A stretch of DNA of 64,000 nucleotides from a virus (Duplodnaviria; Caudoviricetes), in IMG/VR virus record IMGVR_UViG_2830161386_000001, positions 133,772 through 197,771 of that record, one strand, 5' to 3'. Each line of letters starts with the position of its first letter. The stretch's first letter is position 1. Below the pieces are notes generated by a model. It worked only from the letters and a program-made list of their open reading frames with translations, did no database searches and was not told the origin of the DNA. Below are positions 37,357 to 50,751 of the stretch, in pieces. Both the position numbers and the translations under genes were made by a program.

Positions 37357-37385
37357 TATGGTGGGGACTTTTCGCCAACATTTGC
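37357..37385 (-). promoter_or_regulatory. Putative promoter GCAAA-N17-CACCATA upstream of the paralog array
   Basis: Exact spacing; palindrome copy 5 bp upstream (37391..37406). Confidence 0.7.
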
Positions 37386-37429: not shown

Positions 37430-40400
37430 TTAAAACTCCCACCGGTCCGGGTCAAGTCCCTTGTCGAAGCCCTTGCCGTACATGTAGGCGCTTACCGGGC
37501 TCGTCCCCCGGATCTCCGCCTCGTGCCCTTCCTGGGCAGACGTGGTCAGCTCCCGCTTCAGGTTTTGGAAGTTCATCTTCGAGAGCCAATTTTCCCCGTG
37601 GAAGGGCACCTTCCCAACTGGCGTAAGCTGCCCCTCCGCAACGACCGGATCCTCATCGTCCCCGGCCTGCTGGTTAAACGCCTCGATTTTGCCGGACTGC
37701 ACGTTCTCGCCGGGCACAAAATCCGAATCCCCCGGGTCCCGAACGCGGGCGAAGTCCGTCATCGCGGCCAGCGTCGTCTCCGCGCCCCGGCGGTTGATGC
37801 CGCCGATCTCGTTAAAGATGGTGTGCAGCTCTCGCGTCAGGTAGTCGCGGGTTTCCTCCAGCCCCTTTGTTTTCTGCATCTCATCGGGGTCGAAGTGGCC
37901 CGCTTCGGTGATCTTCTCTCCCGCCTCCAGCTCCGCGCCCGGCTCGATTTTATCTCGGATGCGGCGCTCCGGCGGAATTCGGGTAGAGCGCGTCTCGCCC
38001 TTGTCTTTGGAGGTGTAGGTGACGTCGGTGCCGACCTTCCCGCCCTGCGCGAACACGTCTTCCGTTTCCTCAATCTCGAAGGATTCGCCGGGCTCCCCCT
38101 CCGCGATGTGGGCCTTGAAGTTCGGAGACTTTAGCTGCACGATCTCTTGAAAGCGGTCGAACGAAGGGGCGGTTTTGTCCGCCGAACCAGTTTCGTGCAT
38201 CGCCTTGAGCGTGAGCTTCGTGGAGGCCTCAATGATGCCCTGCCCCTCCCGGACGCCGACGTTTTCCCCGAGATCCGGCATGTTTCCGTTTTCCGTTCGA
38301 CCATAACAAGCCGCGCAGACCCCCTCCTCCGACTCGCAAGTCAGCGGGGAGCGCACCTTCACGGTCTCCTGCCCGGCCCGCTCCATCGCCGCGAGCTTCG
38401 AGCCGTCAATCTCCTCGCCGCTTTCGGCCAGGAACCGCCCGTTGAGGTCGTCGGTGTTGAGGCTCCCGCCCTCTTTGAGCGGAATCTCCTTCCCCGCCGT
38501 CGTGCCGCAGTCCCGCTCGGTCACGACCAGGTCTTGGCTTCCGGCGATAATCTGTTTCCCGAGGTAGCCCGGCTTTGAGGTCTCGACCGACCGGTCTCGA
38601 AGCCCCATAAGGGCCCCGTGTTGCTGGAGGTAGTACTCTCCGCCCTTGAGCCCCCGGTTCAAAGAGTTTTTGACCGGCCGGGGCACCCGGTTTTTGTGCA
38701 CGTCCTTCACCATGCCGAACGTGCCGAGCAGCTGCCGGATCTGGTTCGGGCTCGACCGGGAGCCGACCTGCATCATGCGGACCAGCGGGTTGTCCCCGTC
38801 TCGCTCTTTGATCTCTTTCTCCATTCGCTTCATCGTGCCCATGATGGTCTTGTCCTCCTCGCCCCCTTCGCCTTTCTCGACGGTCACGTCCGTCCCCATA
38901 TTCAGGTCGATTTCCGCCTGCTGGTAGTCTGCTTCATCCGGCTCTTCTTTGCCCTTCTCCTCGGCGATAATCTGGGCGCGGTCGCCGATGTACTGTTCGG
39001 ACTGTTCGTAGTGCTTCTCCGCGAGGCTGTCCTCCGGCTTTACGTCGTCGAACCCGACCGTAAAGCCCTTCTTCGTCGCGTGCTGGGAGCCGAGCATCGA
39101 GAGCTTGTGGGAGATGTCCGCGTACTTTTCGGGAAAGCGGCGCACGAGCCCCTCCAGAAAGACGTCCTCCATGCCCTCGTCATCGAGGTCCAGGCCCCGC
39201 ATGCTAATGTCCTTGTCCGGGTGGTCGCTTTGCAGCTCCTCCATGTATTTGTTCAGGCCCATCTGCCCCTCAGTGCCCTTCCGGATCGCGTCGTCGATCA
39301 GGGCCCATCCCGGCGTCCACTGCTCCGCGTCTCCGTCCTCGCCTTGAATCTTAAACGGCTGGTGGGGCTTCACGTCGCCGGTGTTGTACTTGCGGATCAG
39401 GTCGTTCTTGTCGGTTATGTCCGGCTCGTTTTTCGGCTCCGGGTCCCCGTCGGCTACAGGGCTGCTTCCGGCCACCTGCGACAGGTCGTGCAGCCCCAAG
39501 AGCTGGCTGTGGTCCGGGTGCACAAGCAGCTTTTTTGAGCCGGGAGCGCGGAGATTCCGGCTTGGCTTCATGCTGTGGGCCTCGTTTACTGCCGCGTCGG
39601 TCACCGGCACGTGGGCTGACATTGTATTGTGCACGATAATCCCCGGCCCCACGCAGAACACGTGATCGCCTTCTACGGTCATGTCTGCTACCACCGGCTC
39701 TTGCTCGACCTGCTCAACTGAGCGGACCGTATAGGCTTCCTGAGTGGGTGGCAGACCGAGCTTTTCTGCCACCTCACGACCAGACCCGAATACCGAATCG
39801 TGCACGTTGTCAAGCACGTCTTCACCCGCCTCAAGGTCTTGGGGCGCAACCTCCTCTCCGCCGACCATCATCGAGTGGTCGCTCGTCACGCGAACGGCAT
39901 AGCCGCCCCTAGTTTCAACCTCATAGGTTGGTTTGTCCGTCTGGTGGACCGTCAGCTCATTAACCGACACCCACTCCCCGTTGCTATTGAGCGTTTGAAC
40001 ACTTGACACGAACGGCAACCTGAGGTTTTCCGACGGAACCTCTCCAAATATCTGGGTGATTAACTCTTTAATTTGGCCTTCCCAAAGCCCATTGGCCATA
40101 CGAAGCACGACAGGCGTGTTGAGCGACACGGAATCCCCGTCAAAATCTCCGCCCTGAAACGGGGCGACGACCTGGTTGGGGACCCGGATTGCCTTCTCGG
40201 TGTCGTTGGACTCCGGATCCTCCGAAATCAGCTTCGGCTCGTGGGCCGTGACGTTGTGCTGCCACCACGACGGGTCCCGGTTTAGAAGCACCGGGCGGTC
40301 CTCCATTGCCTTCCGCAGCTCTTTGCGGGCCTTGTCGGTGCGGTCCTCGTACTCTTCCTTCGCGTCGACCGCGCTTCCAAGCTCTTTCGAGAGCTCGTTC

Positions 40401-43400
40401 CGGACAAACGGCTCGTAAATCGTCCACGCCATCTCCTCCGGCAGGCCGACCTCGTCGACCCCGAGGGCGTCGGTGCCCTCAATCTGTTTGAGCCCGGAGG
40501 GAATGATCGTCGACCGGCCAGAGAGGTCCTGTTTCTTTTTCATGACTTTCCGCTGGGCGTAGCCGCCCTTTGGGCCCTGCGATTCGTCGTCCTCGTCGGT
40601 AAAGTTTTGGTCCCCGGCCACGGCGCCGCCGCCGGCAATCTGGTCCATGATCGACTTGGCCTTGATGTTGCCCCGCGGGCTGGAGCCGTCCCCAAAGAGG
40701 GCCCCGAGGTCCTGCATCAGCCCTTTTCGGTCCTGCTTGATCTCTTCCTCCCCGAGGTAGTTTTCAACCGACTGATTTAGCTGCTCCTTCCCGTGAAGCA
40801 CCTCCCCGTAGAGCTTGTTCGTGGGCTGGCGGTGAATCTTCCCGTCCCCGCTGAGAAGCGGGCGGCGGTACTTGCCCGGCATCACCGGCACCTTGCTCAA
40901 CATAAAGGCGTCCTCCGGCGCCACGTCGTTTTCCTGGAGGTTGCCCAAAAACTTGAGCTTCGACTTGTACATATCCGCCCGCTCGGCCTTGAAGTCCCCC
41001 TGCATGTAGTCTTCGGCCTTTGACCGGACCTCCTCCATCGTTTTGTCCACGTCAATCGTGGAGAGAAGCTCCTTGAGGTCCTCCCCGCCGCTGTAGGTTT
41101 TGTCCCCGATCTCCACGGAGGCGTCTCCGATGTAGAGGTTCTTTACGTCCTTCTGCGTCATGTTCGACGTGGTGCGGGTCTTCCCGTTTGCCTTGTTGAT
41201 GCGGGGAGTCACGTCGTGGGACACCCGGAGCCCGTCTTCCAGGGCGTACTGAAGGCCCTTCTTGAATAGCGGGTTCGGGACCGGCTCCGGAAGCTCGATG
41301 TGGTTCCAGTTCTCCGCCCCCTCCCCGACGAGGTTCGGGTCGAAAAGCCCCTTCGTGACCGCTTTTTGCCGCCCGTACCCGCGGTCATGCTGCTTCGGGG
41401 TCTGGTAGCCGCCGGGGTTTTCGATCTCCCCCGCGCTTTTTCTCTGGATGTCCTTATCTGTCATCGGCGTGAGCTTAATCGCGTCCTTCTGGTCCTCCTC
41501 GACACTTACCCCGAGGCTTTCGATCATCGATTTAAACTTGTCAAACGAGAAGGGCGTGTCCGCCACCCGGGGCTTCCGGCCTCCCTTGACGAAGTCGTAC
41601 CAGTAGTCCTGATTTTCCGTCCCCTTGATCTGGGCCATCTCCGAGAGGTTTGCCCGGGCGTTGTGGCCGATCATGCTGTGGACGGTCAGGTTGTCCATGC
41701 TCGCCCCGCCGACGGGCTGTTCGTCCATGTCGTACCCCTCGTTGACCCCGCGGGCGTCGAACTTCTTGTTCAGCATGTGCTTCAGCTTCGCGACGTACTG
41801 CTTCCCGATGTTGACGTCGGGAATCGTCTCTCCGGTCTCCGGGTGCTCGAAGTCCTCCTGCACGTCGATGCCCAGCTCCTCAAGCTCCTGGTTTATGTCC
41901 TCCCAGTCGGTCCGGTTGTCGAAGTTTTTGACCTTGTAGGTTTCTCCCTTCTTGTCCGCGACTTTCCCGGCCGCGTTTTCGAAAATCTGCCCCACATTCG
42001 CCCGCGAGGGGACCCCGTGCGGATCGACGAGGAGGTCCGGCACCTTCCCGTCTCGCTTTCGCTTCGGCATTTTGTCCTCCGGAAGCACCTTGGAGGTAAT
42101 GCCCTTGCCCCCGGCGCGCACGGTAATCTTGTCTCCCTCTTTAAATTTCTCTTCCGTCTTCACGTACACCCGGACGCCGGCGGTATTGCCCTCCCCGTCT
42201 TTGTCCGTTTCCACGCGGGTGACGACGCCCTTGTCCGGCTTATTCCAGTAGACCGACCGGTCCCGGGCGTCGATCCCAAACTCCTTAAACGTCTGCTTGA
42301 GCTGGCGCGTCAGGTCCGGGTCGTTGCGCAGGTTTGCCTTTCCAATTGCGGTCACGAGGGCGTCTCCCTCCTCGACGGTCGCGCCCTCTTGAATAATGCC
42401 ATCGGCCCCGAGGGTGTCGCGGTTCAGGTCCCCGAGCTTCCCTCGGTCGCGCATGTGGGTGGAGTAGATGTCCAGGCCCTGCTCGTCGTTTGGCTCCGCC
42501 TCGTAGACTTTCTCGTAGACGTGCTCGGAGGTGAGCTTCTCGGCCCCCTTTTCCGACATGACCATACTGTCCTCGTAGTTGAAGCCGGACATCGGCATGT
42601 AGGCGACGTCGAGGTTTTTCCCGACCGCGAGCTTCCCCTCCTCGTCGGTGTAATTGTTGGTCGTCATGAGATCCCCTTCCTCCACCTGGTCTCCGGGGTC
42701 GACCTTGACAGAGTGGTCGATAAAGCCGCCTTGATTGAGCGGAAGGTCGTTAAAAAGCGGGTACTGCTTCTCCTCCCCCTCGTCGGTCTCGACGACAATG
42801 GCCTCCTCTTGCACTTCTTTCACCGTACCTGGCTCCTCGGCGGTCACGTTGTAGCGGTGGCCGAGTCGCTTTGAGAAGGTCTCTCCGGTTTCATCTACCG
42901 GGTCGACCAGAGGCGACTCCGCGTCTTTCAGGGAAACCCCCTGGGCCATCTGCCTCGCCCCCATAATCGCCCGCGGGCCGGAGTTGTGGTGCACAAACGG
43001 GACGATGTTGGTCCCGTCGGCCAGCATGTCGGTCATGTCCGGCAGGACGTACCGAACTTCCTCTTCGGGAACTTGCTTGACCTCGTTTCCGACGCCGGCG
43101 TAGACTTCCTCTTGCTTCGGCTCGTAGGTTTCTCCGCCCTCGGTTTCCTCCCGCTGGAAGTCGTCTGCAAACCCGATATTTCCCTCCGCGATCTCCTGGG
43201 CGGAGACGATCCGCTTCTCTCCCTGCTTCCGGTCGTAGACCTCACGCTGGACCTCCCCGTCCTCCCCGATGCGGGCGCCTTTTGCCAAAGGCATCGAGCG
43301 GCCCGGACTGCCGGTTGGGGTGTTGACCACGTCAATGAGGCCAAGCCGGGAGGGGTGCAGCTCGATGTTCTCTGGCTGGATCGCGTGCTCGGACTGGATG

Positions 43401-44596
43401 CCGCCGGGGCCCTTGATGGTAATTTCCTTGCCCCGGTTGTCGATGTCGAGGATGTTGTTGGTTTCGGTGGTGGTCGAGAGAGCTGAGTTTTTGTAGGTCG
43501 ACTGCACCTTGTTTCGGATCTTCCCCTTTACCGAGGAGAGAACCGAGGAGAGATCCGGCGTCTCCCCGCTTTGAAGCGCGTCGTCGATCCGGTTTTCCGC
43601 CTCGCTCATCTTCCCCTTTAGTTTCGAGTCCCGCTTTAGGTTCTCGCGGAGCTGGGTCGGAATCCCGTGGATGCGCCGGAACTCCTCGGAGAAGCGGTGG
43701 GTGGGGTTCTCCCGGCCGTTGAGCGTCTGGACGAGCTTCCGGGCGGACTGCTTGATCGTCTCGGCCGAATACTTCTCGGTTTCAACGTCTATGGTCTTGC
43801 GGTTTACGTCCGACTCAAACGCCTTCCCGTCCGTAAGGAAGTCCCGCAGCATCTCGGCCATCTCCTCAAAGGATGCCCCTTCCGGCAGCTCCTCCTGGAG
43901 CTTGTTCGGCGTGATGCCAGTGAAGATTTTCTTCGTCACGTTCTCCAGGTCCAGCGGTGCCGCGTCCCCGGCCGCCTGGCCGACGCTTAGGTCCTGGTGG
44001 TTGTATTTGTAGAAATCCCCCATGATGTCTTGGATCTCCGACTCCGGGACCTCAAACACCTTTAGCAAGGCGTAGACGCCCCGCTCGACCGTTTTTCGGC
44101 TCTGGCCGATCACCTGAACGTCAAGGGTCGGGGTGTCGTCGTTGTCCGCGTCGACTACGAAGTTAAACGACCCGCCCTGCTGGGAGTTGAACTCGACCAT
44201 CGCGTCTCCCTCCTTTCGGGTCGGGTAAATGCCCGGCTCCCGCCGCACCTGAAACTTGTTCTGGTAGTGCATCCCGTTGATCATCCGGGTGCCCAAGTTG
44301 TCGACAACGGGGTAGTACGGGCCAATTTTCGTGTCGTGCTCCTGGAGAACCTCCCCGTCCTTTTTGAGCTGAAACGTCCCCTTCATCGGGACCTCGTAGG
44401 ACTTGCCCTTCGCCCGGGCGTCGTTGATGTAGCCGGGGTTGTCTTCGAGGTCGTCTTTACTTTTGTCGATGTGCACGTCTTTGAGGTCGATCTGCACGTC
44501 TCCCTGGTCGGACTCCAGGGGCATCATGTCGCGCAGGGCCTTCTGGACCTCCGTCTCGATCTCCTGGTCCTCATTCCGCGTTAGAAGCGAGCTCAT
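37430..44596 (-). CDS. rpoBC: Single-chain fused RNA polymerase beta-beta' subunit with intein
   Basis: Beta motifs (HPSRLG, PFVHHN..RAIMG, GFNYEDS, GDKITVRAGGKG, PHGVPSRANVGQ, KLKHM) continue in frame into beta' motifs (HIELP, SGRSTI, LLNRDP, GDFDGD, GYL, CESEEGVCAACYG); start placed at MSSLL. Confidence 0.93.
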   Translation of the reverse strand: MSSLLTRNEDQEIETEVQKALRDMMPLESDQGDVQIDLKDVHIDKSKDDLEDNPGYINDARAKGKSYEVPMKGTFQLKKDGEVLQEHDTKIGPYYPVVDNLGTRMINGMHYQNKFQVRREPGIYPTRKEGDAMVEFNSQQGGSFNFVVDADNDDTPTLDVQVIGQSRKTVERGVYALLKVFEVPESEIQDIMGDFYKYNHQDLSVGQAAGDAAPLDLENVTKKIFTGITPNKLQEELPEGASFEEMAEMLRDFLTDGKAFESDVNRKTIDVETEKYSAETIKQSARKLVQTLNGRENPTHRFSEEFRRIHGIPTQLRENLKRDSKLKGKMSEAENRIDDALQSGETPDLSSVLSSVKGKIRNKVQSTYKNSALSTTTETNNILDIDNRGKEITIKGPGGIQSEHAIQPENIELHPSRLGLIDVVNTPTGSPGRSMPLAKGARIGEDGEVQREVYDRKQGEKRIVSAQEIAEGNIGFADDFQREETEGGETYEPKQEEVYAGVGNEVKQVPEEEVRYVLPDMTDMLADGTNIVPFVHHNSGPRAIMGARQMAQGVSLKDAESPLVDPVDETGETFSKRLGHRYNVTAEEPGTVKEVQEEAIVVETDEGEEKQYPLFNDLPLNQGGFIDHSVKVDPGDQVEEGDLMTTNNYTDEEGKLAVGKNLDVAYMPMSGFNYEDSMVMSEKGAEKLTSEHVYEKVYEAEPNDEQGLDIYSTHMRDRGKLGDLNRDTLGADGIIQEGATVEEGDALVTAIGKANLRNDPDLTRQLKQTFKEFGIDARDRSVYWNKPDKGVVTRVETDKDGEGNTAGVRVYVKTEEKFKEGDKITVRAGGKGITSKVLPEDKMPKRKRDGKVPDLLVDPHGVPSRANVGQIFENAAGKVADKKGETYKVKNFDNRTDWEDINQELEELGIDVQEDFEHPETGETIPDVNIGKQYVAKLKHMLNKKFDARGVNEGYDMDEQPVGGASMDNLTVHSMIGHNARANLSEMAQIKGTENQDYWYDFVKGGRKPRVADTPFSFDKFKSMIESLGVSVEEDQKDAIKLTPMTDKDIQRKSAGEIENPGGYQTPKQHDRGYGRQKAVTKGLFDPNLVGEGAENWNHIELPEPVPNPLFKKGLQYALEDGLRVSHDVTPRINKANGKTRTTSNMTQKDVKNLYIGDASVEIGDKTYSGGEDLKELLSTIDVDKTMEEVRSKAEDYMQGDFKAERADMYKSKLKFLGNLQENDVAPEDAFMLSKVPVMPGKYRRPLLSGDGKIHRQPTNKLYGEVLHGKEQLNQSVENYLGEEEIKQDRKGLMQDLGALFGDGSSPRGNIKAKSIMDQIAGGGAVAGDQNFTDEDDESQGPKGGYAQRKVMKKKQDLSGRSTIIPSGLKQIEGTDALGVDEVGLPEEMAWTIYEPFVRNELSKELGSAVDAKEEYEDRTDKARKELRKAMEDRPVLLNRDPSWWQHNVTAHEPKLISEDPESNDTEKAIRVPNQVVAPFQGGDFDGDSVSLNTPVVLRMANGLWEGQIKELITQIFGEVPSENLRLPFVSSVQTLNSNGEWVSVNELTVHQTDKPTYEVETRGGYAVRVTSDHSMMVGGEEVAPQDLEAGEDVLDNVHDSVFGSGREVAEKLGLPPTQEAYTVRSVEQVEQEPVVADMTVEGDHVFCVGPGIIVHNTMSAHVPVTDAAVNEAHSMKPSRNLRAPGSKKLLVHPDHSQLLGLHDLSQVAGSSPVADGDPEPKNEPDITDKNDLIRKYNTGDVKPHQPFKIQGEDGDAEQWTPGWALIDDAIRKGTEGQMGLNKYMEELQSDHPDKDISMRGLDLDDEGMEDVFLEGLVRRFPEKYADISHKLSMLGSQHATKKGFTVGFDDVKPEDSLAEKHYEQSEQYIGDRAQIIAEEKGKEEPDEADYQQAEIDLNMGTDVTVEKGEGGEEDKTIMGTMKRMEKEIKERDGDNPLVRMMQVGSRSSPNQIRQLLGTFGMVKDVHKNRVPRPVKNSLNRGLKGGEYYLQQHGALMGLRDRSVETSKPGYLGKQIIAGSQDLVVTERDCGTTAGKEIPLKEGGSLNTDDLNGRFLAESGEEIDGSKLAAMERAGQETVKVRSPLTCESEEGVCAACYGRTENGNMPDLGENVGVREGQGIIEASTKLTLKAMHETGSADKTAPSFDRFQEIVQLKSPNFKAHIAEGEPGESFEIEETEDVFAQGGKVGTDVTYTSKDKGETRSTRIPPERRIRDKIEPGAELEAGEKITEAGHFDPDEMQKTKGLEETRDYLTRELHTIFNEIGGINRRGAETTLAAMTDFARVRDPGDSDFVPGENVQSGKIEAFNQQAGDDEDPVVAEGQLTPVGKVPFHGENWLSKMNFQNLKRELTTSAQEGHEAEIRGTSPVSAYMYGKGFDKGLDPDRWEF
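39626..40132 (-). mobile_element. Mini-intein (169 aa) in the RNAP active-site loop
   Basis: DFDGD|SVSLNTPV...VTSDHS...DMTVEGDHVF..GIIVHN|TMSAHVP; block B TxxH and terminal HN followed by Thr; no room for an endonuclease. Confidence 0.92.
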
Positions 44597-45083
44597 GTTC
44601 GGAAATGTCGAAGTAATTAGCAGGCGGTCGGTGGGCGACGCGCCGACTGTCGTCAATCTGTATCGATAGCTCGGGGGTCTTCTCTTTCTTTTGCACGTAG
44701 GAGAGGGCGCTGGGGCGAATCCGGTTGACCCGCGTGTACCAGTAGTCGTAGGTGTTGCGGTGGGAGTCCCGGCCCGACGCGATGGACACAAGCGGCACGC
44801 CGCCCTCCGCCATCAGGTCCACGATCGGGTCGCTTTCCCCCTCCATCGCCGTGGTCACGAGGCGGGCCGCTGCGTTGAGGCGGTAGGAAGAGCGCCGCTT
44901 CAGCATGTACTCTTTGATTTTCTGGCCGCCCGGGTTGTCGTCCAGGTACCGGTACACCCGCATTGTCAGGCGGTCCGCCTCCTTGTCGGACTTGGTGTAC
45001 CGCTTGATCACGTCGCGAAGCGCGGAGCGCTCCTCCAAAGACTCCTCGACAACACTGGCCGGATCGGGAAGCTCGCTACTCAT
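44571..45083 (-). CDS. Hypothetical protein overlapping the RNAP start
   Basis: Overlaps both neighbours. Confidence 0.65.
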   Translation of the reverse strand: MSSELPDPASVVEESLEERSALRDVIKRYTKSDKEADRLTMRVYRYLDDNPGGQKIKEYMLKRRSSYRLNAAARLVTTAMEGESDPIVDLMAEGGVPLVSIASGRDSHRNTYDYWYTRVNRIRPSALSYVQKKEKTPELSIQIDDSRRVAHRPPANYFDISEHELASNAE

Positions 45084-45345
45084 TGCTCTCGCTTTGCTGC
45101 TGCTGGATTTGCTGCCTCGCCTCCTCGTACTCGGCGGTGCTGTCGGCCCCAGGCTCCTGCGGGACCTGCGGGTTTAGCTCCCCCCGAAACTCAATTGTCG
45201 GGTTGTTGACGGCCGTTTGGCCTCCGTCTCCGTCCGGCACGTACACCCGGACGTCGCTCCAGTCCGCGATGTCTCCGTACAACAGCTGCATCGCTTCAAG
45301 AAGCTCCGTCTTTGTCGGTCGGTGCGTCGTCGTCGGCTTGCTCAT
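45076..45345 (-). CDS. Small hypothetical protein
   Basis: Overlapping operon arrangement. Confidence 0.6.
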   Translation of the reverse strand: MSKPTTTHRPTKTELLEAMQLLYGDIADWSDVRVYVPDGDGGQTAVNNPTIEFRGELNPQVPQEPGADSTAEYEEARQQIQQQQSESNE

Positions 45346-45829
45346 TGCAAGTTTGGCACTGGCTCGAAGAAATAAACTGCTCGATTTCGCTTTGCCCCCG
45401 CTTTTCTGGGGCGATCACAACGTCGGTTTGCTCGTGTCCGGCGTCGCACACCCGGATTCGCCTCACGAAGTGCGGAGCCCGGTAATCGCTGGTAAAAAGC
45501 GACCGGACGTGGCTTTTTTCTGTGCTGGTTGCCCAGCGGACGTACACCCCGTTCCGCCGGAGCCGGGCGTACCGCTTGAGTTTCGGCCCCAGGCCCGACG
45601 GCCGGCTCAGGCCGAGCCCGTCGTACTCCACGAGCATCAGCGCCTGGTCTTCAACGCTTTGCGGGCCGAGCTGGACCCCAAAATCAGACTCGGCCCCGGC
45701 GACCACCGGGTGGCCGACGACCCCGCGAAGATACTCCTCGCGAACCAGCGCAAAAAGCACGCGGGCCACTTCTTGCTCGGACTTCGAGTCAAAGGCCCCC
45801 AAGACGCCTGATTTTGGGGCGCCGAACAT
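45296..45829 (-). CDS. PD-(D/E)XK nuclease-like protein
   Basis: DSKSEQEVA...SDF...LVEYDG pattern (Vsr/DUF559-like). Confidence 0.5.
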   Translation of the reverse strand: MFGAPKSGVLGAFDSKSEQEVARVLFALVREEYLRGVVGHPVVAGAESDFGVQLGPQSVEDQALMLVEYDGLGLSRPSGLGPKLKRYARLRRNGVYVRWATSTEKSHVRSLFTSDYRAPHFVRRIRVCDAGHEQTDVVIAPEKRGQSEIEQFISSSQCQTCNEQADDDAPTDKDGAS

Positions 45830-46449
45830 CAGAACACCTCTACTGGTGAGGCCGCCGGGCTGGGGGAATCCTCCGGGCCGCTGGCCTGCGGGTCAAGACG
45901 GGTCATCCACTGGGAAAGCGACTGTGCAAGGTCTCGTTCGCTCAGGTCCGAAAGCTCGTCGCCGACCATCCACGTGTCAAAGCCACGCGCCATCGCCTCG
46001 ACGAGCCCGGTGCTCATTTCTTCGTTCTGGTCTACACCAAAATATAACAGCCCCCCGTATATCTGGTGATGCAGAAGCGACCGCGGGATTGCCTCCGCGA
46101 CGATGCCCATGCGCCGGGTCCGGTCAATGCCAGGGAGGCAGAACGCAACTGTGGGCTGGCCGCTGATAAGATCCCCTTGCAGGTCCGTCGCCGTGGAGGC
46201 GTACTCCACTACGTTGGCAAAAAGGCGGCGGTCGTGCTCCGGCTCGTCCGGGGAGAAGGGAAAGCACATCGGCTGGCAGACCTGCTCGACGACCCCGTAA
46301 ATTGCCTGCCACCGCTCCGGCGGCCCGAGCACCCCGAGCAAAATAACGCGAACCGGCGGGTCCTCCTCTACGCCCTCTTTTTCGCTGTTTTGATCAGGGC
46401 TTTCATTTTGACTGGGCTTCCCATTTTGCCCATCCCTTTTGCTATTCAT
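45829..46449 (-). CDS. Hypothetical protein
   Basis: Overlapping operon arrangement. Confidence 0.65.
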   Translation of the reverse strand: MNSKRDGQNGKPSQNESPDQNSEKEGVEEDPPVRVILLGVLGPPERWQAIYGVVEQVCQPMCFPFSPDEPEHDRRLFANVVEYASTATDLQGDLISGQPTVAFCLPGIDRTRRMGIVAEAIPRSLLHHQIYGGLLYFGVDQNEEMSTGLVEAMARGFDTWMVGDELSDLSERDLAQSLSQWMTRLDPQASGPEDSPSPAASPVEVF

Positions 46450-46888
46450 CGTTTACGACTTGATCGGCCAATTCGTTGGGGCGGCGTTTCAGCTTTTCGT
46501 AAATGCGGGTTCCCGAACCGATGTGCGAGGACCGGTACCGAATAACCGCCCGCACCTCCGGCTCCGACAGCACGTCCTGCCGCAAAAGCCGGGCGCACTG
46601 CTCGACAAACTTGCGGGAACAGCCCCGGACGCCTCCTTCGGTAAGGCCCGCTTCTTGAGCCAGCTCGTAAGTGAGGCGGATCCGGTAAAGCGTGCGGTCG
46701 CTTTTTTTGAGCACGCGCCCGGAGACCTCAACGGCCTGGCGGGCCTCGGCAGGGGAAAGGTCTTGCTCCGACATCGCCTTTCCGGCGCGCCACCACCAGT
46801 CAACTTTGTCGTGGAACGCCTCGGCAATTTCGTCGCCAACGCGCTTTGATTTAAGTACCTCGCCTGGGCTCATCGCGCTTTCGGTCAC
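46442..46888 (-). CDS. Hypothetical helical protein
   Basis: Overlapping operon arrangement. Confidence 0.6.
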   Translation of the reverse strand: MTESAMSPGEVLKSKRVGDEIAEAFHDKVDWWWRAGKAMSEQDLSPAEARQAVEVSGRVLKKSDRTLYRIRLTYELAQEAGLTEGGVRGCSRKFVEQCARLLRQDVLSEPEVRAVIRYRSSHIGSGTRIYEKLKRRPNELADQVVNDE

Positions 46889-47373
46889 GACCGGGAAAAC
46901 AGGTTTGGCTGGATGCGGGCGATGTAGAGATCGAAGTTTTCAAAAGAGGGAGAGCGGTACGTGTACCGCGGGCTCCAACTTACGTGCCGGCCGACCGACT
47001 CGATAATGCCAGAAAGCCGGCTTGTGGCCCGGCCCGGATGAACGGCCATGTCCCGCATCCGGATCATAAACTCGTTGCCCGACCGGTACCCCGCCGCCCA
47101 AAGCGGCGCCTGCTCGCTCAAGGACAGGTCCGTTTTCGTGTGGTGGAGGATCAGCTCCTCTTCCGGCTCGATCTGGGCGCCGACCTCGTTTTTATCTGGC
47201 GGGCCTCCCTCAATCCAGCTCGCGCAGACGTAAACCTCCTGCCCAACTGGGTACTTCAACACCTCTTCGACAAACGACCGGATGGCCGCTTCAAACTCGT
47301 CGGATGCCGGGTTCACCATCGGAAGGGAAGATTGGGCGCATCTGCTACATGTCCAACCTACTCCGAAAGCCAC
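46885..47373 (-). CDS. Hypothetical protein
   Basis: Overlapping operon arrangement. Confidence 0.55.
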   Translation of the reverse strand: MAFGVGWTCSRCAQSSLPMVNPASDEFEAAIRSFVEEVLKYPVGQEVYVCASWIEGGPPDKNEVGAQIEPEEELILHHTKTDLSLSEQAPLWAAGYRSGNEFMIRMRDMAVHPGRATSRLSGIIESVGRHVSWSPRYTYRSPSFENFDLYIARIQPNLFSRS

Positions 47374-47830: not shown

Positions 47831-48622
47831 CTAGGCCGTAGCAAGCGTTTTGGCCCCGACTTCACGGGCCACGCGGCGGTACTCCGCCGACGCCCGCGCA
47901 TCGGGGCGGCAAATTACGGTGGGGACCTGCCGGCGGTAGGAGTCTTGAACCGCAACGTTTTGAGCGATTGTCGACTCGAACACGTAGTCCTCGAACTTCT
48001 CCCGCATCGCGCTGCTGACGTCGGCGGCATGGTTGGTTCGGTGGTCGACCCGGCAGAGGAGGATCCCAAGGAGAGAAAGCCCGGAGTTGTGGTACTTCTT
48101 GATGTCCTCGAATACCCCGAGCAAGTCGGCGGTCCCGTCGATTGCCATGTCCGAGGCCTCGACCGGAATAATCAGGTCTTCCGCCGCAACGAGCGCGTTC
48201 ATCGTAACCCGCCCGAAGTTGGCCGGGCAGTCTAAAATCACGTAGTCCCAGCGGGTCCGCTCTCCGCGAAGGGCCTCCCGGAGCTTTTCGTTCTGCCCGA
48301 TTTGCTCTTTTTCAAGCAGGGCGTCGGCGCTGGCCATGCTGCCGGTCGAGGGGACCAGGTCGACGTTCTTTGCAATCGTGTCCTTAAAGAGAGAGGAGGG
48401 AGGCGACCCTTCAACCAGGACCTCAAGCGTCCCTCGCTGGGCGCCGCCCTCCCCGTGCCAGATGGTCGCGGAGCGCTGTGGGTCCAGGTCGACAATCAAG
48501 ACGGAATGACCCATCTCCCCAAGCGCGGCGGCTAGGTTGACGGCCGTCGTCGTCTTTCCGGTTCCGCCCTTCCGGTTTGCAATAGCGATTACGTGGCCGG
48601 CTCCGCTGTTGGGGGCGCCCAT
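47831..48622 (-). CDS. parA: ParA partition ATPase
   Basis: NRKGGTGKTTT deviant Walker A, VDLDPQ, DYVILDCP, ALVAA..LIIPV. Confidence 0.95.
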   Translation of the reverse strand: MGAPNSGAGHVIAIANRKGGTGKTTTAVNLAAALGEMGHSVLIVDLDPQRSATIWHGEGGAQRGTLEVLVEGSPPSSLFKDTIAKNVDLVPSTGSMASADALLEKEQIGQNEKLREALRGERTRWDYVILDCPANFGRVTMNALVAAEDLIIPVEASDMAIDGTADLLGVFEDIKKYHNSGLSLLGILLCRVDHRTNHAADVSSAMREKFEDYVFESTIAQNVAVQDSYRRQVPTVICRPDARASAEYRRVAREVGAKTLATA

Positions 48623-48725
48623 AGGTCTGATCTGCTTTTTTGAACGCAGCTGAGTCCCAGCTGGGACTGGGAGAAAGAGTGGGCAATAACATAGGCGGGG
48701 ACGCCTGGACTTTCAAATTCTGGCT

Positions 48726-48936
48726 TGTACTGTCGTGGTACCCTCTGTACTGTCGTGGTAGCCTATTTTGCTGGTTTCGGCCGTTTTTGGGCCTTTGGCC
48801 CCCTTCATCGGCGCTAGGGGCCAAAAACGTGAACAAAACGTTGGAAAACGGCTCTGTACTGTCGTGTAAGCCAGCTTGTACTGTCGTGTAAGGGTACTTG
48901 TACTGTCGTGTAAGTTTGGTTGTACTGTCGTGTAAG
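48726..48936 (+). repeat. Iterons TGTACTGTCGTG(TAAG), putative replication origin
   Basis: Copies at 48726 and 48746, then 48855, 48877, 48899 and 48921 (22-bp period). Confidence 0.88.
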
Positions 48937-48954
48937 TTTTGGCGGGCCTCTGAG

Positions 48955-48963
48955 TTATCCACA
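48955..48963 (+). promoter_or_regulatory. DnaA box
   Basis: Perfect TTATCCACA next to the iterons. Confidence 0.8.
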
Positions 48964-49209
48964 ACTCTAATTCGTTGGCGCTCATTGTTTTACGCGGCTC
49001 GGGGGTCGCGCGTGCGCGCAGGGTATGGTAAAGGGGTAATGGTAAAAGGTAAAGCGCGTGCGCAAGCGCGCATGCACATGCGTGTGCAGGCACGCAGGCA
49101 CACACATGCGCGTGAGGCAACCGCATTTCCCAACGGTTGCTTTTCACCAACCTACCCCCATATTTGTACCTTCCCTTACGAACGCGCCTCTCCTTATGCA
49201 CCGAAGACA

Positions 49210-50751
49210 ATGCCAAACGGCTCGCCTCGGACGTTTTCAACGTCGCTACCAAAACCACCCCCCAGCGGAACCAAGCCCATCGACCCAAACGGCGCCCTTT
49301 CCACCACCGGGCACGACGAGGCCAACCTCACCGGCCTTCCCGTCACGCGGAACCACCGCCAAGACGACCGGAGCGAAATCGAGCGGACCTGGACCGCCCT
49401 TGGCCGCGGTGGAGAAGAGCGGGAGTTCTACCGGCTTATCAAAAGCAAAAGCGGCGGCGCTCTTCCCGGCCCGACCGCCGACCGGGTGCTAAACGCCCTC
49501 TCCTGCCTGACCGCCCGGCAGGGGCGGGTAATGCAGACCAGCTACTCGGAGCTCGCCTCCCTCGCCGGGCTGACCCGAAGCGGGCGCAGCTACGACTTGA
49601 TCTACCGGGCCCTAGACCGTCTCCAGGACGTGATGATCGAGACCAACTCAATTTGGCTCCACGACCGGGAGCAGTACGTCCGGGAAGCGAAGCTCTACCT
49701 CATCGGCGCGCAGGCGGAGGTCCCCGAGCCGGGAGGGGAGGTCGAGATCCGAGTTGCCTGGACCGAGGAGTTCTACGGGATGATCCAGTCCTGGGCAAAG
49801 CCGATCGACATCCAAAGCGTAAACGACTTGTCCACGCCCATCGCCCGGCGGCTCTACCGCCTCAGCGAGCTTGCCTTCTTCCACGAGGGGCGGTTCTTGG
49901 AAGACCTGCACATCCTGGCCCACGTCCAGCTCGGGCTCTCGGAGCACCGGACGGCGCCGAGCCGGATTAAGCAATCGCTGAAAGGGTCGGTCAAGAGCCT
50001 GCACGAAAACGGGCTGGCTCGCGTGGAGTACGTATCGGACGACCGGCTTCAGTCCGGCAACGGAATTTACGTCTCCCCCGGGCCGAAGATGTACGACTTG
50101 AACATGGGGATCGACGACCCCCGCTACTGGGCCGCGCAAATCGCGATCCGGGGCGTGCAGAACAAGCGAGACAACCCGGTTCGCCGCTGCCGGTCGCTTG
50201 TGGAGCGAAACCCAATGCCTTTCGTCAAGAAATGCGTCAAGGGCTACGACATCCGGCGCCGGGGGGAGCGGGACCTGACGGCGGCAGAAGGGCCGGGGTG
50301 GCTACACAGCGCCTTAAAGCGAGACTTTGAGTTCGACCCGTACGACCCGGGAGACAACGAGCCCCACGTGGAAAGCCCCTCCCGCGCAAGGCCCGCCAAC
50401 ACGGCAAAAGAGGGCCCGCTTCCGGCCAACGACTACGACCCGAAGCCCGCGCTTCAGCCCCGGCCGGACGCCGCGAGCTTCTGCGTCCGGGTGCACGACC
50501 ACATCCACATGCAGGGCGACGTAGACCGAACCGCTCTCAAGAAGCGGGCGGAGGAGATGATGAATTCGGAGAACGGCCACCACCAGTGGCTCCCAAGCGG
50601 GGCGGAGGGCCAGGCCCGCGAAGCCGTCGAGCGGCGGTTTCTTGTCGCGGCCTATCTGAAGAAGCATGGGCTAGAGGCGCTTCCGGATGAGGTCCGCCGG
50701 TCGGCCCCAGATGACCTGTCCCAGCTGGGACTCAGCTCCTCAAGCGAGTAG
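49210..50751 (+). CDS. repA: Plasmid replication initiator protein (RepA-type winged helix)
   Basis: DEANL..LP, LPGPTADRVL.AL, SYSEL..AG...SGRSY..I..ALDRL....I.TN, ARRLYR; adjacent to iterons; the only credible plus-strand gene. Confidence 0.8.
   Translation: MPNGSPRTFSTSLPKPPPSGTKPIDPNGALSTTGHDEANLTGLPVTRNHRQDDRSEIERTWTALGRGGEEREFYRLIKSKSGGALPGPTADRVLNALSCLTARQGRVMQTSYSELASLAGLTRSGRSYDLIYRALDRLQDVMIETNSIWLHDREQYVREAKLYLIGAQAEVPEPGGEVEIRVAWTEEFYGMIQSWAKPIDIQSVNDLSTPIARRLYRLSELAFFHEGRFLEDLHILAHVQLGLSEHRTAPSRIKQSLKGSVKSLHENGLARVEYVSDDRLQSGNGIYVSPGPKMYDLNMGIDDPRYWAAQIAIRGVQNKRDNPVRRCRSLVERNPMPFVKKCVKGYDIRRRGERDLTAAEGPGWLHSALKRDFEFDPYDPGDNEPHVESPSRARPANTAKEGPLPANDYDPKPALQPRPDAASFCVRVHDHIHMQGDVDRTALKKRAEEMMNSENGHHQWLPSGAEGQAREAVERRFLVAAYLKKHGLEALPDEVRRSAPDDLSQLGLSSSSE

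Follow-up and report, generated by a model that had tools for sequence, protein, structure and literature searches.

Fusion of the two largest subunits of RNA polymerase (RNAP) is known from bacteria: in Helicobacter and Wolbachia, rpoB and rpoC are joined so that beta and then beta' are read in one polypeptide, and these fusions are full-size host enzymes that keep the N-terminal zinc domain and act with alpha, omega and sigma partners. Bacteriophages also encode multisubunit RNAPs. Those named mReC come from uncultured Caudovirales, partly from IMG/VR, and are reported to form a clade separate from cellular RNAP (Weinheimer & Aylward 2020, PMC7481178); in the accessible sections of that paper's main text, the words 'fused' and 'fusion' are applied only to crAssphage. 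The phiKZ/AR9-type enzymes are beta/beta'-like and, according to the accessible parts of two jumbo-phage overviews (PMC7824862, PMC7598289), work without alpha or a sigma70-family factor; the same parts mention no fused form. In phage Arash, both RNAP chains are, like a sigma factor, among the proteins most abundant in virions by mass spectrometry (PMC10585845, in its accessible text). Across the literature outside subscription-only journals, our search found no paper describing a fused phage beta-beta' RNAP in Caudoviricetes. Here we analyse a stretch of 64,000 nucleotides (hereafter the window), the last 64 kb of the Caudoviricetes contig IMGVR_UViG_2830161386_000001 in IMG/VR. Judged from its sequence, the minus-strand gene at 37430-44596 of this window is a real, selected, phage-encoded gene for a single-chain beta-beta' RNAP with a mini-intein in its catalytic loop, and enzyme activity is predicted.

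The open reading frame (ORF) list gives a minus-strand frame at 37430..44791, which counts 2453 amino acids (aa) from a TTG codon. Translation from the ATG at 44596 yields a protein of 2388 aa starting with MSSLLTRNEDQ; relatives share this start point (consensus MS...), and the database protein P0006 is identical over 2388 aa. The calculated masses are 264.9 kDa for the precursor and 246.5 kDa for the 2219-aa product expected after splicing. Pfam domains follow one another in the order Rpb2_6 of beta (residues 587-965, E 2.9e-60), Rpb1_2 (1422-1495), Intein_splicing (1539-1657), Rpb1_4 (1922-1977) and Rpb1_5 (1982-2291), and the bit scores lie above the curated cut-offs for PF00562 (204.8, cut-off 23.4), PF04998 (80.4, cut-off 28.5), PF00623 (29.2, cut-off 25.3) and PF05000 (25.5, cut-off 24.8). 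The original prediction of a single ORF of about 2390 aa carrying beta and then beta' motifs is thus confirmed by the 2388 codons (followed by a stop), by the domain order and by a sequence search of the PDB, in which the best matches are bacterial beta' chains (E 1.2e-68) and beta chains (5.1e-61). These bacterial best matches are also what speaks for a captured or misbinned host rpoB-rpoC region. Against such an origin, the gene lies among phage genes in a genome bounded by direct terminal repeats, and its product is only 22-28% identical to Salmonella RpoB and RpoC by BLASTP; the tree described below bears on the same point.

Comparison with Salmonella RpoB and RpoC, whose sequences were taken from a contig in the phage collection, allowed us to divide the minus-strand gene into modules. 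The beta module (residues 1-1035; 41492..44596) was delimited by BLASTP and by alignment blocks, with residues 9-124 corresponding to RpoB 41-156, 360-801 to 498-938, and 808-1033 to 1050-1338. Alignment to RpoC and BLASTP place the beta' N-extein at residues 1036-1488 (40133..41491), where it ends in the catalytic GGDFDGD (40133-40153). The predicted mini-intein of 169 aa follows (residues 1489-1657; 39626..40132), and the C-extein (residues 1658-2388; 37430..39625) then starts with TMSAHVP and contains the bridge helix, the second zinc site and the trigger loop. In BLASTP the beta' part matches RpoC 100-474 with residues 1095-1498, RpoC 466-939 with 1659-2137, and RpoC 1190-1346 with 2207-2364. 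In multiple alignments the beta C-terminal end, ...SLGVSVEED, abuts the homologue of the RpoC N-terminus, QKDAIKLTPMTDKDIQ..., at about residues 1035/1036, so that the fusion is head-to-tail and essentially linker-free.

A series of active-centre elements is retained. The beta module has NYEDS and GDK...GGKG aligned with the NFEDS and GDK...GNKG of E. coli-type enzymes, which we take to be the acidic pair for Mg-II and the active-site lysines, respectively. In beta', the catalytic triad DFDGD lies at residues 1484-1488, Arg425 is conserved, and alignment blocks covering RpoC 765-830 and 880-950 show the bridge helix and the trigger loop with its histidine (KAMHETG) in place. The second zinc site is kept as Cys 2030, 2087, 2094 and 2097 (38306-38509); together with Cys 1648 of the intein, these are the five cysteines of the whole protein.

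The protein is compact and altered in the ways that had been proposed from the DNA alone. The RpoC 60-100 stretch with the four cysteines of the zinc domain is a clean alignment gap, and no cysteine precedes residue 1648, which bears out the proposed loss of the N-terminal zinc ligands. Neither RpoB 938-1050 in beta nor the RpoC 939-1190 insert in beta' (which has no SI3) has a counterpart by BLASTP and alignment, and the spliced chain would count 2219 aa against the 1342 plus 1407 aa of the bacterial subunits. The two motif changes that had been noted are likewise seen in the alignments: GDKITVRAGGKG aligns with GDKMAGRHGNKG, giving VRAGGKG in place of GRHGNKG, and NADFDGD reads GGDFDGD. RAGGKG is found in no other of the 103 fused proteins tallied. 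The region of rifampicin cluster I is heavily diverged: the alignment has E for D516, R for H526 and T for S531, at what are presumably positions of rifampicin resistance.

Since the record is a single metagenome-assembled one, and since the intein interrupts the catalytic loop, we considered whether the fusion might be an assembly or sequencing artefact, or the gene a decaying relic disabled by its intein. The window stretch or near-copies of it occur in at least 20 runs of 10 studies, which are labelled as metagenomes of hypersaline lakes, brines or salterns; one of these runs may be the source of the record. We compared the window with Logan contigs of four further runs, each from a different study and named here X2, X3, X4 and X8, whose contigs leave 2 of 30 bins uncovered in X4 and 1 of 30 in X8. 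All four bridge the beta/beta' junction (~41491) without an indel, by contigs spanning 40097-42799 (X2), 40690-42652 (X3), 41327-41827 (X4) and 41280-42550 (X8), and in this respect the refuting condition set with the original prediction, a stop or frameshift in reads at the junction, came out in favour of the prediction. Reported indels are confined to one X8 contig of low depth, which has a +1/-1 pair at 42003/42006, separated by three bases. Among the differences listed (267 more exist), 36 of 40 fall at third codon positions, the pattern expected under purifying selection. In addition, the 2388 codons are open with a GC content at third positions (GC3) of 0.82, the canonical terminal residues of the intein are all intact, and 102 other fused clusters are among those listed in the family search described below. 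An artefact or relic is, on this evidence, largely refuted already, and we regard it as very improbable.

One X3 contig stands apart, as it joins position 38262 to 40449 with 29 other letters between them. Such a join would cost the protein its catalytic centre, and its length is not divisible by three; an assembly chimera or DNA of another organism may account for it.

To place the protein in a family, a word-indexed search of 5.8 billion proteins was used; it returned 131 hits, and the family counts given here rest on the best 120 of them. PF00562 and PF04998 occur in one protein in 103 of the 120 listed clusters, the present one included. The listed fused proteins, mostly 2000-2100 aa long, come from contigs that reach 210 kb, and about 35 contain intein or homing-endonuclease domains. 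Alignment-based scans added 39 loci in IMG/VR (26-32% identity) and 55 metagenome loci, while a single-protein query of viral contigs gave no related loci. The motif is readable in 96 fused proteins; D[FY]DGD is preceded by NA in 56 of them, by GG in 14 and by GA in 8, and 94 of 96 fused relatives have no cysteine in the window of sequence matching the beta' N-terminus. By these counts, loss of the zinc domain is a trait of the family and GGDFDGD a trait of a subgroup. The fused members P0042, P0096 and P0105 have no cysteine at all, so that the second zinc site appears dispensable in parts of the family.

A beta' tree was computed from 56 rows and 1124 columns with a quick IQ-TREE search (LG+C20), with support from the SH-like approximate likelihood ratio test (SH-aLRT) only. 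Its bacterial sample is small and chosen by similarity (13 rows); fused proteins longer than 2150 aa were omitted, and every second one of the rest was taken. A branch with support 100 sets the 13 bacterial rows apart, and 42 phage rows, 40 fused and 2 Arash-type, lie opposite (100). The present RNAP belongs to a nine-row clade on a long stem (100) together with P0007-P0014; this clade is sister to P0017, P0019 and P0021, and the joint 12-row group holds the GG enzymes (99). Against the 13 bacterial proteins sampled, the protein does not, then, nest within ordinary host RpoB/RpoC, the placement that had been named beforehand as fatal to the prediction; it lies deep on the phage side. With the bacterial rows set apart at an SH-aLRT of 100, and with the zinc domain missing as in 94 of 96 members of the phage family, capture or misbinning of host genes is hardly credible, the least likely of the explanations that we weighed. 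The description of the enzyme as a bacterial-like, minimal phage RNAP is upheld in that the gene is a phage gene and its product trimmed and of bacterial type; with at least 102 other fused clusters, it is not unique.

A different arrangement was seen in Rhizobium phage RHph_Y65 (L013:7743-11126), where Kleczkowskaviridae carry a separate beta' gene of 1127 aa. In the tree this protein has a very long branch and neighbours the bacterial rows, apart from the fused family.

The intein lies directly after the third aspartate of DFDGD. It starts with Ser1489, has T-S-D-H as block B and ends in IIVHN1657 before Thr1658, so that all the end features of a class 1 intein (N-terminal Ser, block B TxxH, C-terminal HN and Thr+1) are present. 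Its excision would leave GGDFDGD|TMSAHVP, where intein-free relatives read GGDFDGDTMGVHVP and GGDFDGDTMSVHVP. The Pfam match to Intein_splicing (PF14890) has an E-value of 2.1e-8 and, at 34.6 bits, is just under the cut-off of 35.8; a PDB search with the intein alone gave five hits, all of them inteins, at weak E-values (0.11-0.48). The GC3 of the intein is 0.65, against 0.82 for the whole RNAP gene. No endonuclease domain was found within its 169 aa, and we classify the insert, by these features, as a mini-intein lacking a homing endonuclease.

The nearest relative, P0007 (55% identical, 3001 aa), has a homologous intein of 375 aa at the same site, whose surplus is one linker block of 206 residues and which carries a LAGLIDADG domain (PF14528) together with PF14890. 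Inteins also occupy this site in P0008 (169 aa) and P0014 (354 aa). Serine or cysteine follows DFDGD directly in eight family proteins; a search for the end pattern found an intein in four of them (P0006, P0007, P0008 and P0014) and no C-terminal intein junction in P0016, P0034, P0091 or P0098.

The metagenome contigs show variation of this kind too. In X2, 87 nt at 39715-39803 are replaced by 705 nt, a gain of 618 nt (206 codons) that agrees with the endonuclease block of P0007 in both linker position and size. Window positions 39991-40097 are replaced by 108 other letters in X2, X3 and X8, and the intein segment 39803-39991 differs at 30 of 189 positions, against about 1-3% in the exteins. 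The intein thus evolves or is exchanged independently of its host gene, and alleles with and without the endonuclease coexist in nature. No intein-free allele was seen among the contigs compared, which by their nature cannot show absence. Elsewhere in the genome, outside the window, a second intein with a LAGLIDADG domain lies in the large subunit of ribonucleotide reductase (1348 aa; L011:9559-13605, genome 123559-127605).

The complete genome provides the context for the enzyme. The record is a virus contig of 197,771 bp whose CheckV completeness is 100; it is bounded by direct terminal repeats, and a script found 95 identical bases at its two ends. It encodes a large terminase, a homologue of the portal (23% identity with Arash gp204, E 1e-64), a baseplate wedge, a sheath-like protein and rIIA, as well as DnaB, a DnaC-like loader, a DnaE-type polymerase, a primase-like protein, RecA, thymidylate synthase, GroES and ribonucleotide reductase. 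The RNAP gene sits among the replication genes, about 140 kb from the portal gene. PF00562 has a single match in the whole genome, and the fused chain is the only RNAP found in it; a search with PF00940 for a T7-type RNAP was uninformative, its control having matched nowhere.

The observation that the window holds no alpha gene and no full sigma gene extends to all 197,771 bp in profile searches with positive controls. The alpha N-terminal domain PF01000 had no match at E<=1 in the whole genome (control positive in 14 of 14 genomes), and the same was true of the sigma70 regions 2 and 4, PF04542 and PF04545 (controls positive in 11 and 14 of 14 genomes). No sigma appeared by PHROG or Pfam among 75+86 window ORFs and 87+89 other ORFs scanned. 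A sigma70-family gene of 265-271 aa is present in four of five related phages of about 200 kb, and a hidden Markov model (HMM) built from these four sigmas reached a best E of 7.5 against all six-frame ORFs of at least 50 aa in the genome. Subunits of the host could still be used by the phage RNAP.

The RNAP is acidic, with an isoelectric point (pI) of 4.83 and 18.5% D+E against 12.4% K+R. The neighbour P0007, from the same assembly, has a pI of 4.89, and ten other relatives lie between 7.67 and 9.65. Over 160 predicted proteins of at least 100 aa, the median pI of the phage proteome is 5.22, and 43% are below pI 5. These values, taken with the habitat labels of the runs and with replication genes of bacterial type, suggest a bacterial host with a high-salt cytoplasm, and the acidic surface of the enzyme (pI 4.8) would fit function there. 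A RecA scan of the genome contigs for a hint of the host gave no match.

A repeated bipartite sequence, GCAAA-N17-CACCATA, is the candidate for what the enzyme may read. At no more than one mismatch it has 8 matches in the window against 0.07 expected; the genome holds 15 copies, all on the gene strand (minus), with those in the window spanning 9980-60227. Ten of the 15 copies lie 17-70 nt before an ORF start, and most are followed about 5 nt on by a short hairpin-forming sequence, which in several window copies reads GACGAGGG(G/A)A(A/C)ATG(G/C)CTCGTC (GACGAG...CTCGTC). One copy, at 37357..37385 on the minus strand, is about 45 nt after the stop of the RNAP gene and 70 nt before the next ORF. 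The data suggest that the motif is a candidate promoter class of the phage. The 5' leaders after the copies are pyrimidine-rich, without an obvious Shine-Dalgarno sequence. The structural gene block holds few copies, so at least one other class of promoter must exist. Scans for sigma70-type promoters were not usable: around the RNAP gene 4 sites were found where 1.3 would be expected, each of them within coding sequence, and upstream of parA 1 site against 0.6.

Which factor would recognise this motif is the point at which two accounts part. With no sigma70-family gene detectable, promoter recognition would fall to an unrecognised phage factor or to a borrowed host sigma. Under the second account, the core enzyme would take up a host sigma and read GCAAA-N17-CACCATA through it, and no phage factor would be needed; it draws on the failure to find such a gene in the complete genome, on a 17-bp spacer typical of promoters of the sigma70 family, and on the beta' clamp helices, which alignment places at about RpoC 255-312. 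The sequence of these helices is, on the other hand, poorly conserved, and related phages carry a sigma of their own. Moreover, L058, the contig carrying the 55%-identical relative, has the motif with one mismatch in the same place after its RNAP gene, although the GC content there is 46% and here about 60%; constancy of the motif despite this shift in base composition suggests a phage-borne reader. We consider a host sigma the unlikelier of the two, with perhaps a minority chance of being right.

The best candidate for a phage factor would be the product of a 170-aa ORF immediately upstream of the RNAP gene (44571..45083, minus strand), whose stop overlaps the RNAP start by 26 nt and which may thereby be translationally coupled to it. 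Its homologue on L058 is 45% identical and likewise overlaps the RNAP start. Exhaustive HMMER searches gave a family of 21 members; with the family HMM, RNAP-adjacent members were found only on L057 (its own sequence) and L058, among 94 related loci (1.71 Mb). An AF2 model built with 23 sequences has a mean predicted local distance difference test score of 79.3 (42.9 with 5 sequences, which was unusable). In VIA-align, residues 1-51 of the model resemble many helix-turn-helix (HTH) proteins, sigma region 4 included, in generic matches with a Z of 3.5-5.2. At E<=0.001 Foldseek found no match in the PDB, and Pfam no sigma family at E<=1 on 23 members of the family. In hhalign against four phage sigmas, the segment DLMAEGGVPL...TYDYWYTR was twice aligned to region 2.2-2.3, at a probability of just 2.0-2.6%, and Atlas listed sigma families for the protein only below its bar. 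We keep this modelled HTH protein as a candidate RNAP-associated or specificity factor, which is a lead and not a result. Farther upstream, four small ORFs (177, 206, 148 and 162 aa; 45296..47373, minus strand) are syntenic with the RNAP gene on L058 by tblastn and have no Pfam or PHROG hit.

Taken globally, we think it likely that the protein serves the phage as the catalytic core of a transcription enzyme of its own, a single-chain, two-barrel RNAP of bacterial type that is activated by splicing and acts at phage-specific promoters. The precursor would be inactive, since in the Mg-binding DFDGD loop the intein parts the third aspartate from what follows of beta', and its position inside the metal-binding loop implies that the precursor must splice for activity. 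Splicing would proceed by attack of Ser1, cyclisation of the terminal Asn and ligation at Thr+1, giving ...GGDFDGD-TMSAHVP... and the 2219-aa enzyme. The covalent link between beta and beta' would probably replace alpha in assembly, for which the alpha-free phiKZ/AR9 enzymes are a precedent. The mature enzyme would then transcribe phage genes from phage-specific promoters, GCAAA-N17-CACCATA being one class of them, and it may be packaged in the virion.

Several observations pull the other way. At the catalytic centre, residues N458-A459 of NADFDGD are both glycine, the normally conserved RAPTLHR reads RDPSWWQ, and the equivalent of the active-site His1237 is aspartate, so that substrate handling could differ. 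The link between the RNAP and GCAAA-N17-CACCATA is circumstantial, and no statistical test tried upheld a sigma-like nature of the 170-aa protein (none by Pfam, 2-2.6% by hhalign, none by Foldseek). The sigma carried by four of five related phages means that its absence here might reflect a factor too diverged to be seen rather than a different mechanism, and the tree is a quick search with just 13 bacterial rows.

The changes at the catalytic centre are the ground for a further explanation, namely that the enzyme is not an ordinary DNA-dependent RNAP. Asn458 of E. coli beta' contacts the ribose of the incoming nucleoside triphosphate. Its replacement by glycine, found as GGDFDGD in 14 of 96 readable family members, could relax sugar selectivity, or the enzyme could have some other template or product preference, such as priming or the use of mixed ribo- and deoxyribonucleotides; RDPSWWQ and the aspartate at the His1237 equivalent would fit. 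What speaks against it is that the DFDGD triad, Arg425, the trigger-loop histidine and the bridge helix are all retained; Arash-type enzymes also lack the asparagine (AADYDGD), and a DnaE-type DNA polymerase and a primase-like protein are already encoded in the phage genome. We consider such an activity improbable and continue to favour a phage transcription enzyme. A more specific form of this favoured reading, in which the GGDFDGD subclade would be a self-contained RNAP free of alpha and sigma70, with the 170-aa HTH protein as a novel type of specificity subunit for GCAAA-N17-CACCATA and with activity gated by the intein and possibly dependent on salt, is speculative, and we would give it a minority chance.

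Cellular-type RNAPs of phages serve as material for studying the evolution of transcription machines and the minimal size of such an enzyme. A complete genome with one polymerase found and a clear candidate promoter offers a defined in vitro system, consisting of one protein, one template and few candidate factors. The mini and full-length intein alleles illustrate the intein homing cycle as it occurs naturally among phages of a population, and the acidic RNAP and its intein could make a salt-tolerant pair for biotechnology.

Other features of the genome touch the polymerase less directly. The divergent region 48623-48960 holds six iteron-like repeats, (T/C)ACACGACAGTACA or a CCACGACAGTACA variant, and is flanked by a gene for a ParA-type ATPase (47831-48622, minus strand) and one for a RepA-like initiator (48898-50751, plus strand). 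Iterons, parA and repA together form a plasmid-style origin and partition module, so that persistence as a phage-plasmid is conceivable. A giant ORF of 3826 aa that lies outside the window (L009:2156-13636, genome 78156-89636) has a weak hit to a carbohydrate-binding module only.

Set beside the described systems, the RNAP resembles each of them in part. The fusions of Helicobacter and Wolbachia share its order of subunits; the phage protein differs in having no N-terminal zinc domain, and no alpha or sigma70-family gene was found to accompany it. The phiKZ/AR9 RNAPs consist of four or five polypeptides and are far more diverged, whereas the present enzyme is a single chain that aligns readily with RpoB and RpoC; PHROG matches to the phiKZ/AR9 families are weak (E 1e-6 to 1e-24) compared with those to two unnamed families (1e-65 to 1e-71). 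The mReC subunits, in the accessible text and files, are close enough to the cellular ones to align, as here. They are required to have a NADxDGD motif (PMC7481178), from which GGDFDGD departs, and in 15 phage rows of supplementary file 2 they are separate ORFs (beta 920-1563 aa, beta' 902-1052 aa), whereas the present RNAP is one. The fused form is abundant in sequence databases yet was not found described in print outside subscription-only journals, and the present RNAP is a divergent, acidic member of it without a recognisable sigma.

The closest deposited phages are Arash (gp206 and gp216) and the Vibrio phages D69, D181 and D148, whose homologous beta and beta' are 26-29% identical by tblastn. 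In these phages, with genomes of about 180-190 kb and a portal and terminase distantly homologous to those of the present phage, beta is also head-to-tail with beta', and their RNAPs lie, like the present one, on the phage side of the beta' tree. Their beta' is split, however, into a beta plus N-terminal beta' chain of 1525-1527 aa and a C-terminal beta' chain of 606-609 aa, with the break about 100 residues after AADYDGD, a point through which the present RNAP is continuous. The Arash sigma (gp10) has no BLASTP counterpart in the present phage, and the Arash RNAP gene follows the portal gene, which here is about 140 kb away. Arash also has no intein at DFDGD, and our literature search, again outside subscription-only journals, found no paper naming both 'intein' and 'NADFDGD'. 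As for the intein itself, LAGLIDADG inteins and their mini derivatives likewise occupy the most conserved catalytic site of an essential enzyme, likewise have Ser1, TxxH, HN and Thr+1, and likewise coexist as alleles with and without the endonuclease; the intein described here differs from the known ones in its host protein, which is a fused phage RNAP.

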